Source: a virus (taxonomy: Duplodnaviria; Heunggongvirae; Uroviricota; Caudoviricetes). From it: 5,110 nt of DNA. Shown here one piece after another: positions 1 to 5,110 of the stretch. Positions within the stretch are counted from its first letter, which is position 1; each line of letters begins with the position of its first letter. Location of the stretch: positions 1-5,110 of IMG/VR virus record IMGVR_UViG_2698536657_000013, one strand, 5' to 3'. The notes under the pieces are model-generated. The model did no database searches, was not told the origin of the DNA, and was given only the letters and a program-made list of their open reading frames with translations. The position numbers were made by a program, and so were the translations under genes.

Positions 1-485
1 AGGAAATATCAAAAGTTCTTATGAATGTGGCCATTGTCAACGGCATTAAGATGGCCGCAAACAGTATGTCCGGTGCAGGAGGATTTTTCGGCAGTATAGG
101 CAACTGGCTGGGTGGCGCGGTGGCAAATGCAAAAGGCGGCGTTTATACCTCGGCAAACCTGAGTGCATACAGTAACAGTATTGTGGACACGCCCACGTAC
201 TTTGCCTTTGCAAAAGGGGCAGGGCTGATGGGGGAAGCCGGACCTGAAGCCATCATGCCCCTGACCCGGGCAGCGGATGGTTCACTCGGCGTGCGTGCGG
301 TGGGCAGTATGAACGGCAGTGCGGGTCTGGTGTATTCCCCGGTGTACCACATTGCCATTCAGAATGACGGCGCTAACGGGCAGATAGGGCCGGAAGCGGT
401 GGGCACCCTTGTGCAACTGATTGACCAGCGGGTACAGGCGGTGATGTTATCCATGCGTCGTGACGGAGGAATGCTGAGTGGATGA
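1..485 (+). CDS. Tail tape-measure protein (lambda gpH-like), C-terminal part; 5' end lies outside the window (codon_start 3)
   Basis: Frame 3 is open from the window edge (no in-frame stop before the listed ATG at 21) to TGA at 483-485. Gly/Ala/Ser-rich C-terminal sequence. Stop overlaps the GTG start of the M homolog by 8 nt, as expected for H-M in lambdoid tail operons. Confidence 0.75.
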   Translation, partial: EISKVLMNVAIVNGIKMAANSMSGAGGFFGSIGNWLGGAVANAKGGVYTSANLSAYSNSIVDTPTYFAFAKGAGLMGEAGPEAIMPLTRAADGSLGVRAVGSMNGSAGLVYSPVYHIAIQNDGANGQIGPEAVGTLVQLIDQRVQAVMLSMRRDGGMLSG

Positions 486-819
486 GATTAAGACCCTTCA
501 CTGGTGTCCCCGGGAAGGGATGCAGGTGACGGAGAAACCGTCGGTGGTGACGGTGAAGTTTGGCGACGGTTATCAGCAACGTCGTCCGGCAGGACTGAAT
601 GCGCAACTGAAGACCTTTCAGGTGGTTTTTCGGGTGACAACGGATGCTGAGCGGGAGGCACTGTCCGCGTTTCTGTCATGGCATGGTGGTTACCGGGCTT
701 TTTTGTGGAAGCCCCCGAAACATAACCGGACGGTCAGGGTGGTGTGCCGGGAGTGGAGTATTACGGATAACGCCCGGTACAGTGATTTCAGTTGCACGAT
801 AGAGCAGGTAGTCAGATGA
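478..819 (+). CDS. Minor tail protein M (lambda gpM-like)
   Basis: 113-aa ORF with GTG start at 478, preceded by GGAGGA (464-469). Product shows gpM-like blocks (VKFGDGYQQRRPAGLNA, HGGYRAFLWKPP) as recalled from the family. Lies between the tape-measure and L homologs. Confidence 0.85.
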   Translation: MDEIKTLHWCPREGMQVTEKPSVVTVKFGDGYQQRRPAGLNAQLKTFQVVFRVTTDAEREALSAFLSWHGGYRAFLWKPPKHNRTVRVVCREWSITDNARYSDFSCTIEQVVR

Positions 820-839
820 GAATTATCCTATAAATCACT

Positions 840-1017
840 CTTTATTGTTTAGTTGTTAATTATTTTTAATCTGTCTTGTCAGAAAGTGCGAAATCGATCT
901 TGTATTTACATTTTGTTACATAATATAAATTGAACTAAGAATTTGTATTAAAATATTTTAATTTTTGTTCATGACATCTGAATGCATGAATAGTTCAGTT
1001 TAAATAAGGATTAAATC
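840..1017 (+). promoter_or_regulatory. AT-rich upstream region of the porin moron; candidate sigma70 promoter and RBS
   Basis: Intergenic stretch after the M stop (817-819) is strikingly AT-rich compared with the GC-rich tail genes. One candidate promoter is TTGTAT (900-905), 18 bp spacer, TATAAA (924-929). SD AAGGA at 1006-1010 lies 7 nt before ATG 1018. The exact promoter cannot be fixed from sequence alone. Confidence 0.35.
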
Positions 1018-2172
1018 ATGAAAAAAACGACAGTGGCACTTTCTGCTGTAGCAGTGGCAGTGATGTTTGCTGCGGGGGTGCAGGCAGCAGAAGTTTATAA
1101 TAAAGATGGTAATAAACTGGATCTTTACGGGCGTGTAACCGCTCTGCATTACTTCTCGGATGATAAAGGTAATGACGGAGACCAGACTTATGCTCGTCTC
1201 GGCTTTAAAGGCGAAACGCAGATTAATGATCAACTGACCGGATTTGGTCAGTGGGAATACCAGTTCTCTGGTAACAAAACGGAATCTGAAGGTTCCGCGG
1301 GAAATAAAACCCGTCTGGCATTTGCAGGTCTGAGATTTGCAGATGTTGGTACCATTGATTACGGACGTAACTATGGTATTGCTTATGATGTCGGATCATA
1401 TACTGACGTACTGCCTGAGTTTGGTGGTGATGGCTGGACGCAGACCGATAACTTTATGACGGCCCGAACTTCCGGTGTCCTGACTTACCGTAATACAGAC
1501 TTCTTCGGGCTGGTTGATGGTCTGAATTTTGCGGCGCAGTATCAGGGCAAAAATGAGCGTGATGACCTTCAGAAGGCTAATGGCGACGGGTATGGTTTCT
1601 CGGCCAGCTATGAGTTTGATGGTTTTGGTTTTGTCGCTGCGTATACCAAGTCAGATCGTACCGATAAGCAGGTTCAGGGGTTGAACGGTACTGCAGATGT
1701 TCTTGATCCTGAATCAGGTAAAAAGGTTGGAGAAAAAACAGTTGACTCAGGTAGTGTGGCAAAAGGTAAACATGCTGAATTCTGGGGAACTGGTCTTAAA
1801 TATGATGCCAATAACCTGTATCTGGCAGCAGTGTATTCTGAAACCCAGAATATGACGACCTTTGGTGATCAAGGTGTTGCGGATAAAGCTCAGAATATCG
1901 AAGCCGTTGTTCAGTATCAGTTTGATTTTGGTCTGCGCCCGTCCCTTGCCTACCTTCAGTCCCGCGGACAGGATGTTATGGTTGGTGGTGTGAACCATGG
2001 CGATCAGGATCTGGTTAAATATATTGATGTCGGTGCGACTTATTACTTTAACAAGAATATGTCCACCTATGTTGATTATAAAATTAACCTGATTGATGAA
2101 AGTGAATTTACCCGGAAAGCCGGTGTTGCGACAGATAATATCGTTGCTGTGGGTATGACTTATCAGTTCTGA
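1018..2172 (+). CDS. Outer-membrane general porin, OmpC/OmpF/PhoE family (prophage-borne NmpC/Lc-like lysogenic-conversion porin)
   Basis: 384-aa ORF. Signal peptide [23 protein letters not shown] followed by mature N-terminus [16 protein letters not shown]. Porin hallmark blocks: [109 protein letters not shown]. Ends in ...YQF, the beta-barrel C-terminal aromatic. Codon and base composition are more AT-rich than the flanking tail genes. Confidence 0.95.
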
Positions 2173-2198
2173 TTATTGCTGATAAGTTAATAAATACG

Positions 2199-2250
2199 GG
2201 CCGTCTGCCCTTACAGGCGGCCTGTATCAATGAAAACACAGTTTTCATTG
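2199..2250 (+). other. Two adjacent stem-loops in the porin 3' flank (RNA stability or protein-binding elements)
   Basis: Hairpin 1 at 2199-2222: GCCGTCTG / CAGGCGGC, 8 bp with one G-U pair and a 6-nt loop. Hairpin 2 at 2228-2250: perfect 10-bp inverted repeat CAATGAAAAC-aca-GTTTTCATTG. Neither is followed by a clear T-tract. Confidence 0.3.
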
Positions 2251-2345
2251 GTCACTGCGATCAGCAATTGCCATCTGGCATGTGCTGATTTAACTTTCTG
2301 TTATTACCTTTATTGGTTTTATTTTAAATTGGACTTTTATTGTTC

Positions 2346-2369
2346 GGGGCGCGTCTGCGCCCCTTTTTT
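2346..2369 (+). terminator. Rho-independent terminator ending the porin moron transcript, 12 nt upstream of L
   Basis: GGGGCGC (2346-2352), loop GTCT, GCGCCCC (2357-2363), followed by TTTTTT (2364-2369). Perfect 7-bp GC stem plus T-run. Confidence 0.7.
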
Positions 2370-2381
2370 ATGGGCGGATAT

Positions 2382-3080
2382 ATGCAGGATATTCACGAAG
2401 AAAGCCTGAACGAGTCGGTTAAGTCAGAGCAGTCACCGCGGGTGGTGCTCTGGGAAATCGACCTGACGGTGCAGGGCGGTGAGCGGTATTTTTTCTGCAA
2501 TGAGCTGAATGAAAAAGGGGAGCCGGTGACCTGGCAGGGGCGTGAATATCAGGCGTACCCGATTGAGGGCAGCGGCTTTGAGATGAACGGAAAGGGCAGC
2601 AGTGCCCGCCCGTCGCTGACGGTGTCCAATCTTTTCGGGCTGGTCACCGGGATGGCGGAGGATTTGCAGAGCCTGGTGGGTGCCACGGTGGTCCGCCGCC
2701 GGGTGTATGCGCGTTTTCTGGATGCGGTGAATTTTGTGGCAGGGAATCCTGAGGCAGACCCTGAGCAGGAGCTGACGGACCGGTGGGTGGTGGAGCAGAT
2801 GTCATCGCTGACGGCCATGACGGCCTCGTTTGTGCTGGCGACACCGACGGAGACGGACGGTGCGTTGTTTCCCGGTCGCATCATGCTGGCGAACACCTGT
2901 ATGTGGGATTACCGGGGCGATGAGTGCGGGTATAACGGTCCGGCAGTGGCGGATGAGTTCGACAACCCCACCACGGATATCCGGAAGGACAGATGCAGTA
3001 AATGCATGCGCGGGTGTGAGATGCGCGGCATGGTGGCTAATTTTGGCGGTTTCCTTTCCATCAATAAACTTTCGCAGTAA
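2382..3080 (+). CDS. Tail tip protein L (lambda gpL-like)
   Basis: ATG at 2382 (MQDIHEESLNE...). The ORF-track start at 2340 is a TTG inside the terminator hairpin and is unlikely. gpL-like blocks: VVLWEIDLT, GGERYFFCNELNEKGEPVTWQG, GKGSSARPSLTVSNLFG, FPGRIMLANTC, FGGFLSINKLSQ. C-terminal Cys cluster present. Stop TAA at 3078-3080. Confidence 0.9.
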   Translation: MQDIHEESLNESVKSEQSPRVVLWEIDLTVQGGERYFFCNELNEKGEPVTWQGREYQAYPIEGSGFEMNGKGSSARPSLTVSNLFGLVTGMAEDLQSLVGATVVRRRVYARFLDAVNFVAGNPEADPEQELTDRWVVEQMSSLTAMTASFVLATPTETDGALFPGRIMLANTCMWDYRGDECGYNGPAVADEFDNPTTDIRKDRCSKCMRGCEMRGMVANFGGFLSINKLSQ

Positions 3081-3090
3081 ATCCCGTTTT

Positions 3091-3834
3091 ATGACACAGA
3101 CTGAATCAGCGATTCTGGCGCATGCCCGGCGGTGTGCGCCAGCGGAGTCGTGCGGCTTCGTGATAAGCACCCCGGAGGGCGAACGGTACCAGCCCTGCGT
3201 GAATATCTCCGCAGAGCCGGAGGCGTATTTTCGTATTGCACCGGAAGACTGGCTGCAGGCACAGATGCAGGGGGAGATTATGGCGCTGGTCCACAGTCAT
3301 CCCGGTGGTCTGCCCTGGCTGAGCGAGGCTGACCGGCGGCTGCAGATAAAGAGTGCCCTGCCCTGGTGGCTGGTCTGCCGGGGCGACATTCACCGGTTCC
3401 GCTGTGTGCCGCACCTGACCGGACGGCGCTTTGAACACGGTGTGACGGACTGTTACAGCCTGTTCCGGGATGCATACCATCTGGCGGGGATAACGCTGCC
3501 GGATTTTGTGCGTGAGGATGACTGGTGGCGCAACGGCCAGAACCTGTACCTGGACAACCTGGCGGACAACGGCTTTTACCGGGTGTCTCCGTCCTGTGCA
3601 CAGGCGGGCGATATCCTGCTGTGCTGCTTTGGTTCATCGGTGCCGAATCATGCCGCCATTTACTGTGGCAACGGTGAACTGCTTCACCATATACCTGAAC
3701 AACTGAGTAAACGGGAGAGGTATTCTGAAAAATGGCAACGACGAACGCATTCTGTCTGGCGTCACCGCCACTGGTCCGTATCTGCCTTCACGGGGATTTA
3801 CAACGATTTGGTCGCCGCATCAGCCTGTATGTGA
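3091..3834 (+). CDS. Tail tip assembly protein K (lambda gpK-like); JAB/MPN (JAMM) metalloprotease-like domain plus NlpC/P60 domain
   Basis: ATG at 3091 (MTQTESAILAHARR...), 11 nt after the L stop. The ORF-track start at 2830 overlaps L in another frame and is rejected. JAMM motif HSHPGGLPWLSEAD (H-x-H-x7-S-x2-D) starts at nt 3292. NlpC/P60-like Cys (GVTDCYSLF) and His (VPNHAAIY). Overlaps the I gene by 103 nt as in lambda. Start is uncertain: lambda's own K annotation is shorter, so a later start is possible. Confidence 0.85.
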   Translation: MTQTESAILAHARRCAPAESCGFVISTPEGERYQPCVNISAEPEAYFRIAPEDWLQAQMQGEIMALVHSHPGGLPWLSEADRRLQIKSALPWWLVCRGDIHRFRCVPHLTGRRFEHGVTDCYSLFRDAYHLAGITLPDFVREDDWWRNGQNLYLDNLADNGFYRVSPSCAQAGDILLCCFGSSVPNHAAIYCGNGELLHHIPEQLSKRERYSEKWQRRTHSVWRHRHWSVSAFTGIYNDLVAASACM

Positions 3835-4412
3835 ACACGGCAGCGGAGGCCATCCGTGCCCTGTCGCTGCAGGTGCCGGGATTCCGCGGTCAGATGAACG
3901 AAGGCTGGTATCAGATACGTATTGCCGGTGAGGATACCGCGCCGGAGGCGGTGTATGCCCGTCTTCATGAGCCACTGAGCGGGAGGGCCGTGATTCATAT
4001 TGTACCGCGGCTGGCCGGAGCCGGGGGAAATGGTGTTTTTCAGGTGGTGCTGGGGGTTGCAGCGATTGTCGGGTCATTTTTCACTGGTGGTGCAACACTG
4101 GCGGCATGGGGCGCAGCCCTGAGTGCCGGAGGGCTGACTGCCACCACGATGCTGTTCTCACTGGGTGCCAGCATGATACTGGGTGGTGTGGCTCAGATGC
4201 TGGCCCCGAAGGCAAAGACGCCGGAGTATAAAAGTACGGATAACGGTAAACAGAACACGTATTTTTCGTCACTGGACAACATGATTGCCCAGGGTAACCC
4301 GATGCCGGTGCCTTACGGTGAAATGCTGGTTGGTTCACGACGGATATCCCAGGATATCAGCACCCGTGATGAGGGCGGAGACGGGAAAGTGGTGGTTATC
4401 GGGCGGGGATAA
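3732..4412 (+). CDS. Tail assembly protein I (lambda gpI-like; N-terminal ubiquitin-like beta-grasp domain)
   Basis: 226-aa ORF MATTNAFCLASPPLVRICLHGDLQRFGRRI... with gpI-like blocks (YQIRIAG, VIHIVPR.AGA, Gly/Ala-rich hydrophobic segment, GKQNTYFSSLDNM.AQGN, YGEM.VGSR). Starts inside the 3' end of K. Stop TAA at 4410-4412. Confidence 0.9.
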   Translation: MATTNAFCLASPPLVRICLHGDLQRFGRRISLYVNTAAEAIRALSLQVPGFRGQMNEGWYQIRIAGEDTAPEAVYARLHEPLSGRAVIHIVPRLAGAGGNGVFQVVLGVAAIVGSFFTGGATLAAWGAALSAGGLTATTMLFSLGASMILGGVAQMLAPKAKTPEYKSTDNGKQNTYFSSLDNMIAQGNPMPVPYGEMLVGSRRISQDISTRDEGGDGKVVVIGRG

Positions 4413-4451
4413 AAATAAAAAAAATCCCGCAGAGTTAGTGGAGCTGCGGGA
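4411..4451 (-). terminator. Rho-independent terminator, minus strand (cassette A)
   Basis: Read on the minus strand: stem TCCCGCAG / CTGCGGGA (4425-4451, 8 bp, 11-nt loop) followed by a U-run (plus-strand A-tract 4411-4424). The U-run abuts the stop codon of I, so it is convergent with the tail operon. Confidence 0.6.
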
Positions 4452-4509
4452 AATAACGATGAAGATTAATGTTATGGAGTTATTTTTTTGGGCAGAAAAA
4501 CATTAACGC
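4411..4509 (-). ncRNA. Putative small RNA, cassette A (about 100 nt, minus strand)
   Basis: Bounded by minus-strand -10 TATAAT (plus coordinates 4516-4521) and the terminator at 4411-4451. No convincing ORF with an RBS. Body contains A-rich runs and the pyrimidine motif AACUCC. Ends with a U-tail. Start is estimated, not mapped. Confidence 0.3.
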
Positions 4510-4542
4510 AGCGAAATTATAAGCGCTACATGGATTTTGCGA

Positions 4543-4564
4543 AAATGTGAAGAAATTCAGAAAT
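4543..4564. promoter_or_regulatory. CRP-like box (AAATGTGA-agaaat-TCAGAaat) upstream of the minus-strand -10 of cassette A
   Basis: Matches the CRP consensus AAATGTGA-N6-TCACATTT with one half-site mismatch (TCAGA). The 5' T of TGTGA is 25 bp from the minus-strand TATAAT, placing the site centre roughly 41-45 bp upstream of the predicted start (class II-like). Confidence 0.35.
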
Positions 4565-4640
4565 TTTTTGCTGCAGAGGTGCAGGGAGCTTGCCGGGTAT
4601 CTGTGGCAGAAGACAGAAAACATCATGCCGGGGTTAAGGG

Positions 4641-4676
4641 ATAAAAAAATCCCGCAGAGTTAGCGGAGCTGCGGGA
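4641..4676 (-). terminator. Rho-independent terminator, minus strand (cassette B)
   Basis: Same 8-bp stem (4650-4657 / 4669-4676) followed on the minus strand by 7 U (plus-strand A-run 4643-4649). Confidence 0.6.
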
Positions 4677-4740
4677 CAGAACCGATGAAGATTAACGTTC
4701 AAGGAGTTTTGTTTTTATTGACCCGAAAAAACTGTAACGC
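4641..4740 (-). ncRNA. Putative small RNA, cassette B (about 100 nt, minus strand)
   Basis: Bounded by minus-strand -10 TATCAT (4747-4752) and the terminator at 4641-4676. Body shares AACUCCUUGAACGUUAAUCUUCAUCG with cassette A. Confidence 0.3.
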
Positions 4741-4773
4741 CCCGGAATGATATCTGCCATGGGGACGCACAGG

Positions 4774-4795
4774 AAATGTGAAGAAATTCAGACTT
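4774..4795. promoter_or_regulatory. CRP-like box, cassette B
   Basis: AAATGTGA-agaaat-TCAGActt. Same 25-bp offset to minus-strand TATCAT (4747-4752). Confidence 0.35.
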
Positions 4796-4877
4796 TTTCT
4801 GTCGCAGGTTTACAGAACGGATTACCGCCGGGGTACCAGTGGCGTAAATGAGCCGGATGTTGTGGTGCGGCTGAAGC

Positions 4878-4917
4878 AAAAAAATCTCCCGTAATATCGC
4901 CGGATACTGACGGGAGA
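4878..4917 (-). terminator. Rho-independent terminator, minus strand (cassette C)
   Basis: Stem TCTCCCGT / ACGGGAGA (4885-4892 / 4910-4917) followed on the minus strand by 7 U (plus-strand A-run 4878-4884). Sequence differs from A and B but pairing is fully preserved. Confidence 0.55.
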
Positions 4918-4980
4918 CGAATAGTCACCTTAAGGAGGTCTGATAATTATTGCTTTTATTGAGCAAAAAAACTGTAACGC
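4878..4980 (-). ncRNA. Putative small RNA, cassette C (about 100 nt, minus strand)
   Basis: Bounded by minus-strand -10 TATAAT (4987-4992) and the terminator at 4878-4917. Body contains ACCUCCUUA, identical to the 16S rRNA anti-Shine-Dalgarno sequence. Confidence 0.3.
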
Positions 4981-5013
4981 TGCATCATTATAGCGGCTAC
5001 AGGCAATTGCCGG

Positions 5014-5035
5014 AAATGTGAAGAATTTCAGAAAT
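5014..5035. promoter_or_regulatory. CRP-like box, cassette C
   Basis: AAATGTGA-agaatt-TCAGAaat. Same 25-bp offset to minus-strand TATAAT (4987-4992). Confidence 0.35.
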
Positions 5036-5051
5036 TTTATTCCGTCATGAC

Positions 5052-5083
5052 ACAGGCACCCTCCGGGGTGCCTGTCGTTTTCT
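5052..5083 (+). terminator. Rho-independent terminator, plus strand
   Basis: ACAGGCACCC (5052-5061), loop TCCG, GGGTGCCTGT (5066-5075), then cgTTTTcT (5076-5083). Perfect 10-bp stem. The T-run is modest (4 T). Confidence 0.5.
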
Positions 5084-5110
5084 GGCATAAACAGATTCAG
5101 ACATCAGACA

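Follow-up and report, generated by a model that had tools for sequence, protein, structure and literature searches.

We identified a complete porin gene, with its own control region, a structured 3' untranslated region (3'UTR) and a terminator, lying between the tail genes M and L of a lambdoid prophage of E. coli. The DNA studied, here called the window, is a stretch of 5,110 nucleotides (nt) from the tail-tip block of this prophage (IMG/VR record IMGVR_UViG_2698536657_000013, positions 1-5,110). We consider it probable that the insert is a self-contained porin-replacement moron of the lambdoid prophage, that is, a unit that supplies a phage porin and turns down those of the host. Its most informative part is the structured, IpeX-like 3'UTR, which an earlier note on this DNA had missed. 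The theme of a prophage porin joined to an IpeX-type RNA is known; its place in the phage genome is new. The features of the insert, or cassette, and of the two tail genes that bound it are as follows.

478-819, plus strand: tail gene M, minor tail protein (Pfam PF05939 Phage_min_tail, E 3e-33).
820-2381, plus strand: the whole cassette (1562 bp), comprising a regulatory region and the porin gene, followed by the structured 3'UTR, the terminator and a putative new ribosome-binding site for L.
905-921, plus strand: OmpR-box-like site TTTACATTTTGTTACAT, predicted from sequence.
930-959, plus strand: candidate promoter, with a -35-like TTGAAC at 930-935, an 18-nt spacer and a -10-like TATTTT at 954-959.
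1005-1010, plus strand: Shine-Dalgarno region of the porin gene, TAAGGA, of which AAGGA is invariant in all variants.
1018-2172, plus strand: porin gene, 384 amino acids (Pfam Porin_1, PF00267).
1657-1770, plus strand: predicted surface loop L5 of the porin, amino acids 214-251, hypervariable (boundaries from an AlphaFold2 (AF2) model and the alignment).
2173-2377, plus strand: IpeX-family structured 3'UTR RNA, recognized by folding, covariation and a covariance model.
2196-2225, plus strand: hairpin 1, with arms at 2196-2207 and 2214-2225.
2228-2250, plus strand: hairpin 2 (CAATGAAAAC / GTTTTCATTG), with compensatory changes at 4 pairs in the lineage and 7 across the family.
2260-2289, plus strand: hairpin 3 (ATCAGCA / TGCTGAT, with a variable apical part), with one compensatory pair.
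2288-2312, plus strand: conserved unpaired stretch AUUUAACUUUCUGUUAUUACCUUUA, lying past hairpin 3 and ahead of the terminator, and antisense to the start of host ompC translation.
2346-2369, plus strand: intrinsic terminator GGGGCGCGTCTGCGCCCC followed by T6, with 7 G-C pairs and a 4-nt loop, 12 nt before the L start codon.
2372-2378, plus strand: GGGCGGA, a putative Shine-Dalgarno-like motif for L at the end of the cassette.
2382-3080, plus strand: tail gene L (Pfam PF05100 Phage_tail_L, E 1e-92).

The M stop codon (TGA, 817-819) forms the left edge of the insert and the L start codon its right edge. In Stx1_14744 (L007), a relative without the porin, the stop of M and the start of L overlap (TGATG; CTGATGCAGG), and the two genes abut in the prophage of enteroaggregative E. 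coli (EAEC) 042, also without the cassette. From the overlap in L007, the extra DNA in the window is exactly 820-2381, as the earlier note had placed it when it described some 1.56 kb of AT-rich DNA separating two genes that are normally adjacent. The insert is not an assembly artefact: a complete E. coli chromosome (NZ_CP045712, FHI_NMBU_11) matches the full window at 99.6% identity, and 109 of 5426 complete E. coli genomes (about 2%) contain the cassette. The tail block itself was matched in 4374 of the 5426, and none of 268 related records of the phage collection has the cassette; the porin is thus not universal in related prophages. The exact boundaries, the terminator and this minority state support the earlier reading of the insert as a moron.

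The cassette has an overall guanine-plus-cytosine (GC) content of 41.9% (22.7% in the upstream region of 198 bp, 45.3% in the porin coding sequence and 41.1% in the 3'UTR of 209 bp), compared with 55.8% in the left flank (H/M side) and 58.7% in the right flank (L-K-I side). The contrast in composition from which the earlier note argued for horizontal acquisition is therefore real, but it is weak evidence of a foreign origin, because low coding GC is usual in this porin group (44.1% in Lc and 47.8% in ompF). The strongest evidence for accessory status is the presence/absence polymorphism together with the mosaic flanks. Both the upstream region and the terminator that the note had assigned to the insert are conserved: the terminator stem is invariant across all variants and is homologous to that of nmpC/ipeX. 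The 3' end of the cassette, ATGGGYGGA, is nearly invariant among the variants (the single variant being ATGAGTGGA), and its Shine-Dalgarno-like motif may stand in for the lost translational coupling between M and L.

The porins found at this junction are a separate, old lineage tied to it. We compared 34 loci with porins at least 83% identical, 5 from E. coli genomes and 29 from IMG/VR contigs; the lineage also occurs in one Citrobacter prophage. L lies downstream of the porin in 34 of 34 loci and M upstream in all 33 whose contig extends far enough, and the Citrobacter farmeri copy has the same order, M-porin-L. The earlier note had found an insertion within the tail-tip genes unfamiliar, and the position is indeed unusual, as neither M nor L lies within 3 kb of the porin at any of 51 NmpC/Lc-type phage porin loci (porin 69% identical). 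Among the porins that the note had named for comparison, identity is 71-72% to NmpC, Lc and Salmonella OmpD and 64.5% to K-12 OmpC; it is 61% to K-12 OmpF. In a database of 5.8 billion proteins, the close relatives (77-98% identical) are nearly all from E. coli, with one from C. farmeri, and the ranking drops from 77-81% to about 70%. In a neighbour-joining tree the M-L porins form a single clade whose sister is the NmpC/Lc/OmpD group. The closest outgroup porins, P0026 (77%) and P0025 (71%), are in non-phage and plasmid-like contexts, not in a phage tail operon, and no species-representative genome among the 80 best matches has a lineage member. We found no description of the lineage, of its M-L position or of a porin between tail genes in the searchable literature.

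Four-fold degenerate sites are only 46-48% identical between the window and the most divergent variants, which shows that the lineage is old. The identities of M and L do not follow that of the cassette across loci, the M proteins ranging from 48 to 100% identity to M of the window. In a comparison with locus L024, the upstream region is 74% identical and the 3'UTR 100% identical, so that breakpoints lie inside the cassette. These breakpoints, and the independent identities of M and L, indicate that cassette and tail genes reassort.

Three other identities were considered and rejected. A chromosomal ompC orthologue, as the PGAP product name implies, does not agree with the 64.5% identity, the prophage tail-operon locus and the absence of a MicF match nearby. 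An NmpC/Lc porin in the strict sense does not agree with an identity of only 71-72%, the separate clade and a position that is not between Q and the lysis genes. EAEC 042 was reported to have a ‘phylogenetically distinct porin’ (PMC2808357); this is probably not an earlier description of the lineage, as the porin in question most likely corresponds to the chromosomal gene between drpB and hchA, and the 042 prophage has M next to L.

The gene product is a general diffusion porin of the OmpC/OmpF/PhoE superfamily. The Porin_1 match is full length (profile positions 1-337 of 337, E 2e-144), in line with the complete OmpC-family gene reported in the earlier note, and the PDB matches are OmpC, OmpK36, PhoE and OmpF (E about 7e-132 to 1e-110). 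The protein has a signal peptide of 23 amino acids (1-23, ending ..AGVQA before AEVYNK), the constriction-loop motif LPEFGGD and a C-terminal ..TYQF. Sixteen strands are present in the AF2 model, of moderate confidence (mean predicted local distance difference test score 64.5), which was used solely to delimit strands and loops.

All three parts of the cassette are under constraint. Between the window and the most divergent variants the protein is 84.6-87% identical, far above the silent sites (an amino-acid identity of 84.6% goes with only 47.9% at four-fold degenerate sites), indicating purifying selection on the porin. The upstream region (74-78%) and the 3'UTR (77-78%) are also far more similar than silent sites, so both noncoding parts are constrained as well. 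Within the porin, loop L5 has a mean pairwise identity of 57.7% and a length of 16-41 amino acids (11 distinct proteins); identity does not fall below 78% in any other segment and is 97% in the constriction loop L3. These data bear on the idea that the cassette is a silent or decaying passenger, silenced by H-NS as an AT-rich region and with a gene unexpressed in any condition that matters. The upstream GC content of 22.7% agrees with this, as do the pseudogene state of K-12 nmpC and the frameshifted portal and J genes in the prophage of the best-matching genome. Yet the open reading frame (ORF) is intact in 33 of 33 loci analysed despite near-saturated synonymous divergence, the noncoding flanks are conserved, the RNA helices covary, and the presence of the cassette beside M proteins only 48% identical implies retention through much recombination. 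We regard a silent passenger as very improbable.

The 3'UTR lies between the porin stop codon and the Rho-independent terminator (2173-2369). The 203 nt after the stop codon fold with a minimum free energy of -82.8 kcal/mol, compared with -46.5 +/- 3.9 in shuffled sequences (z = -9.4). In an alignment of 10 distinct variants, 99.2% of cells in the three hairpins and the terminator are paired, compared with 36-46% when the partners are slid, and 8 pairs have compensatory changes among the M-L 3'UTR variants. Hairpin 1 is not a terminator, as no T-run follows it; it has 3 compensatory pairs within the lineage and 9 across the wider family. The apex of hairpin 3 is deleted in some variants with its stem retained.

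The 3'UTR of K-12 nmpC (the ipeX region) has the same layout of three hairpins (z = -8.7), with a similar terminator and preceding motif. A covariance model built solely from M-L 3'UTRs matched the ipeX regions of K-12 and PA-2 over their full length at 38 bits, every NmpC-type locus tested at about 38 bits, the non-phage outgroup L094 at 83 bits and the plasmid-like outgroup L095 at 52 bits. All of these hits are full length and directly follow the porin stop codon. The model had no match at K-12 ompC or ompF, and among 80 porin genes of other enterobacteria (469 kb) only two of NmpC type matched, the 78 other loci being negative, which serves as a check of specificity. On this comparison of sequence and fold, the 3'UTR is a homologue of IpeX, the RNA of the nmpC/lc 3'UTR, and it defines an RNA family that is uncurated in Rfam. 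An Rfam scan of the window gave nothing at E up to 1; the K-12 ipeX region was also unmatched and the micF control was found, so that this null result is uninformative, as Rfam has no IpeX family.

The same RNA family follows the non-phage porins (L094 4939-5112 and L095 5120-5290). The L094 porin adjoins genes for CdiI and a BON-domain protein; the L095 porin follows an alkaline phosphatase gene, and its contig also encodes the plasmid partition proteins ParM/StbA. In both RNAs UUUAAYUUUCAU, complementary to the first ompC codons, is retained. A weak match of the model on the opposite strand of the window (2043-2247, minus; 19 bits, E 0.05) covers hairpins 1 and 2; it is expected from near-palindromic hairpins and is not a second element. 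The anti-small-RNAs of enterohaemorrhagic E. coli prophages (PMC4104026) were considered as a further identity and rejected, as they are located downstream of PR' and not at the M-L junction.

The conserved unpaired stretch of this RNA is complementary to the start region of host ompC. The cassette stretch TTTAACTTTC-TGTTATTA-CCT, set against the antisense of K-12 ompC TTTAACTTTCATGTTATTAACCCT, is a near-exact reverse complement of the start. The predicted duplex covers ompC positions -13 to +12 with 23 bp and two 1-nt bulges, at -21 to -23.0 kcal/mol according to the stretch used, compared with -14.6 +/- 1.8 kcal/mol for shuffles. Duplexes were predicted in windows, with shuffles and a genomic background of 22,386 windows (180 kb of E. 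coli and prophage DNA). Apart from the antisense of the stretch itself, only the ompC site and a single site in the porin coding sequence reached the duplex energy in this background; the per-window chance of such a duplex is about 5e-4.

Although the variants have 4-5 differences by substitution or indel, all of them hold the ompC register (-20.7 to -23.0 kcal/mol). Some of the differences offset one another: a C-to-U substitution yields a G-U pair, and a bulge is closed by an inserted A. Pairing of the variants with the Shine-Dalgarno region of ompF is likewise predicted (-18.9 to -23.2 kcal/mol), and the porin's own start region pairs with the stretch at only -8 to -12 kcal/mol. The target is stable: in 5366 of 5371 E. 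coli genomes the ompC start region has an identity of 99% or more. We thus predict, from complementarity, that the element in the window could pair directly with ompC. The K-12 nmpC 3'UTR (L006 2370-2529, minus) has AACCUUCUGUUAUAU, which forms 15 bp (one G-U) with ompC -24 to -10 (L009) at -20.6 kcal/mol, compared with -13.9 +/- 2.2 in shuffles.

Several points weigh against a porin-replacement function. Two reviews deny complementarity between IpeX and ompC and an action by base pairing (PMC10690425, PMC3617542), so homology to IpeX alone does not imply an antisense mechanism; our computed match for K-12 conflicts with their statement that there is no complementarity. Positions 2294-2315 pair with the porin coding sequence at 1162-1181 in a contiguous duplex of 20 bp (-25.1 kcal/mol), stronger than that with ompC, which means that about one equally good site per 180 kb is expected by chance. 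This duplex may be due to chance, or it may mask the antisense stretch intramolecularly in the unprocessed mRNA. The family-wide alignment has 95.9% of cells paired and compensatory changes at 19 of 38 pairs, but it was fitted to the model, which inflates pair counts towards structure, and the covariance-model E-values (about 1e-6 for the K-12 and PA-2 ipeX regions) are rough. The promoter hexamers are weak (8/12), below the threshold of the consensus scan and uncalled, and expression of the cassette is itself predicted from its sequence. The C-terminus of J shares 87% identity with the J proteins of Stx phages, compared with 50% for lambda and 49% for phage 434; the receptor cannot be read from this, so self-exclusion cannot be argued from J. 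The pairing site in the porin coding sequence corresponds to codons of loop L1 (DKGNDGD).

Some of these points suit a different reading, in which the porin is plain cargo, a fitness or virulence factor acting in uptake, bile or antibiotic permeability or antigenic variation, the 3'UTR only stabilizes or terminates the mRNA, and the host porins are left untouched. The porin combines strong purifying selection with a hypervariable surface loop of the kind typical of immune or phage pressure, and both the denial of IpeX base pairing in the reviews and the one equally strong chance duplex in the background are in keeping with such a role. However, the unpaired stretch ranks with the most conserved segments of the 3'UTR and holds its ompC register through compensating substitutions and an indel, and neither stabilization nor termination would call for 200 nt with three covarying hairpins whose conservation well exceeds that of synonymous sites. 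Moreover, the homologous RNA IpeX, from the nmpC/lc 3'UTR, is reported to lower OmpC and OmpF (PMC12197685, PMC7177473). We consider plain cargo rather unlikely.

Porin replacement also gains from the relationship of all parts of the cassette to one known unit. The 5'UTRs of the cassette and of nmpC/lc have short motifs in common (TGACATC .. AATAGTTCA); as the 5'UTR motifs, the porin and the 3'UTR RNA are all related to the nmpC/lc unit, a porin-replacement module, now established at another site of the phage genome, is the most economical explanation. A wider proposal is that mobile porins of Escherichia phages carry a 3'UTR RNA family, comprising IpeX, the element described here and the relatives beside non-phage porins, whose unpaired stretch pairs directly with the ompC and ompF starts; a prophage would thereby swap the major porins of its host for one of its own with a hypervariable loop. 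We put this forward tentatively, as a possibility that currently falls short of being probable.

The upstream region suggests how the cassette may be controlled. Nearly all of 15 distinct upstream variants retain the blocks ATTGAA and AAATATTTTA, separated by a variable spacer; this suggests a weak sigma-70-like promoter with the OmpR-like box at about -60 to -40. The 20-mer at 905-924 has 3 mismatches to the F1 OmpR site of ompF and 5 to the C1 site of ompC (both reference sites were checked as exact in the K-12 sequence). A degenerate OmpR-like pattern occurs once in the window and in none of 200 shuffles, and the core TTTACATT..ACA of the box is kept in all variants. Control of the cassette by OmpR, which we infer from this predicted box, is therefore a candidate mode of regulation.

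We propose the following course of events, in which promoter use, OmpR control, RNA processing, ompC/ompF repression and the exclusion phenotype are all inferred steps. In the lysogen the cassette would be transcribed from its own promoter and the phage porin would enter the outer membrane; a related prophage porin, NmpC of Perceval, was expressed 10-fold above background in an LF82 lysogen (PMC9928086). The 3'UTR RNA would probably be processed from the porin mRNA, as reported for IpeX, and would pair with the start regions of the ompC and ompF mRNAs, lowering host porin synthesis. The cell surface would then display the phage-specified porin in place of OmpC and OmpF. The expected outcome is altered permeability and altered sensitivity to porin-dependent phages and colicins, a form of superinfection exclusion comparable to that of PA-2 and Lc. 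Lysogens of PA-2 make Lc and lose OmpC, and hence lose the PA-2 receptor. The intrinsic terminator may keep the downstream tail genes silent in the lysogen, and during lytic growth Q-antiterminated late transcription would pass through the cassette.

The orientation of the cassette, left to right with the tail operon, raises the possibility that its role is in the lytic cycle. The porin and the RNA would then be made late, for example to strip receptors so that progeny are not lost on debris, and the phenotype of the lysogen would be secondary. The cassette is co-oriented with the tail genes, in contrast to nmpC (DLP12) and lc (PA-2), which oppose the Q-lysis transcription, and the new ribosome-binding site that it appears to provide for L indicates integration in operon expression. 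However, the conserved control region, the OmpR-like box and the terminator of its own point to independence from late transcription, and porin assembly and dilution of OmpC are generally slow compared with a lytic cycle. A primarily lytic role appears improbable. Under the wider proposal of direct pairing, the sense orientation in the late tail operon would mean that the porin swap also runs in lytic growth.

Compared with the best-known systems, the cassette combines shared and distinct traits. NmpC (from the cryptic prophage DLP12) and Lc (PA-2) are likewise prophage-borne general porins with the same type of signal peptide (MKK.TVA.SAVA..), and their 3'UTRs have the same layout of three hairpins, an unpaired stretch and a GGGGCG..CGCCCC-T terminator. 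Their genes lie between Q and the lysis genes in antisense orientation, whereas the porin described here lies between M and L in sense orientation and has a much longer and hypervariable L5. The cassette has an OmpR-box-like site, whereas the PA-2 record annotates CRP sites, and its antisense stretch covers ompC -13 to +12, whereas the match of K-12 IpeX is at about -24 to -10. The chromosomal OmpC protein is of the same superfamily and fold, with the PEFGGD constriction-loop motif and the C-terminal YQF common to both; the cassette gene is located elsewhere than the ompC locus and has no micF upstream, and its RNA appears designed to pair with the chromosomal ompC mRNA.

The chromosomal small RNAs MicF and MicC likewise pair imperfectly with a porin mRNA, over about 20-25 bp that include its Shine-Dalgarno sequence and start codon. 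In the cassette, the unpaired stretch resembles the 5' end of MicF (TTAACTTT.T.TTATTACC; local alignment z about 3), but the Rfam MicF model had no match in the window, with K-12 micF found as a control. The cassette RNA belongs to the 3'UTR of a mobile porin gene and has no free-standing, divergent gene, and its best target is ompC rather than ompF, unlike that of MicF. Tail-operon morons such as HK97 gp15 (Juhala et al. 2000; Cumby et al. 2012) are likewise described as additional DNA, bearing signals of its own, placed between tail genes that adjoin each other in relatives, with a presumed role in protecting the lysogen from superinfection. HK97 gp15 is said to be a small inner-membrane protein encoded at another junction, whereas a porin and a regulatory RNA are found here.

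Small antibiotics enter the cell chiefly through porins, to which many phages and colicins also attach. If porin replacement is correct, the supply of a phage porin together with a downturn of the resident porins would alter drug permeability, the targets of phage therapy and surface antigenicity. This would concern about 2% of sequenced E. coli, many of them Shiga-toxin-producing strains; automatic annotation labels the cassette only as ‘porin OmpC’. The predicted 23-bp duplex offers a clean, testable case for the action of IpeX-type RNAs; direct pairing, if true, would overturn the textbook statement that IpeX acts without complementarity. The cassette also shows the M-L junction of lambdoid tail operons to be a stable cargo slot.

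The remainder of the window encodes further tail-tip proteins, as follows.

Up to 485: 3' end of the tape-measure gene (ORF list, Pfam).
3091-3834: tail gene K, with JAB and NlpC/P60 domains (Pfam).
Up to 4412: tail gene I, followed by a gene-free spacer of 700 bp before J.

The FHI_NMBU_11 prophage that contains the counterpart of the window is about 59 kb long and integrated at ompW. Downstream of its tail fibre genes (L001 29000-38100, L091) it encodes a YadA-like adhesin and an S6-family autotransporter protease of 1330 amino acids, and frameshifts are annotated in its portal and J genes. At the site where Shiga toxin (Stx) phages carry stx there is a DNA methyltransferase gene, and no stx is present at this usual site. 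In strain cM8a (L002 6228-8365), L and K are separated by genes for a ClpP protease, an Arc repressor, YlcI and an antirepressor, and several Stx phages (records H3 and H25) have an antirepressor gene inside the same tail-tip block. It seems that the block has more than one cargo slot.

The spacer between I and J (4413-5110) holds three diverged copies of a unit of about 230-240 bp (for example 4495-4567, 4726-4798 and 4966-5038, which are 68-73% identical); L007, without the porin, has a single unit. Rfam gave no match in the spacer. Each unit has a minus-strand terminator-like hairpin with a T-run (at about 4415-4442, 4643-4667 and 4877-4925) and an invariant, CRP-box-like near-palindrome, AAATGTGAAGAA(A/T)TTCAGA. 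Unit 1 contains a minus-strand promoter-like site from 4543 to 4516 (10/12), and the plus strand of the spacer has the mini-ORFs MKINVMELFFWAEKH and MKINVQGVLFLLTRKNC. The units could be tandem small-RNA genes or a regulatory array.

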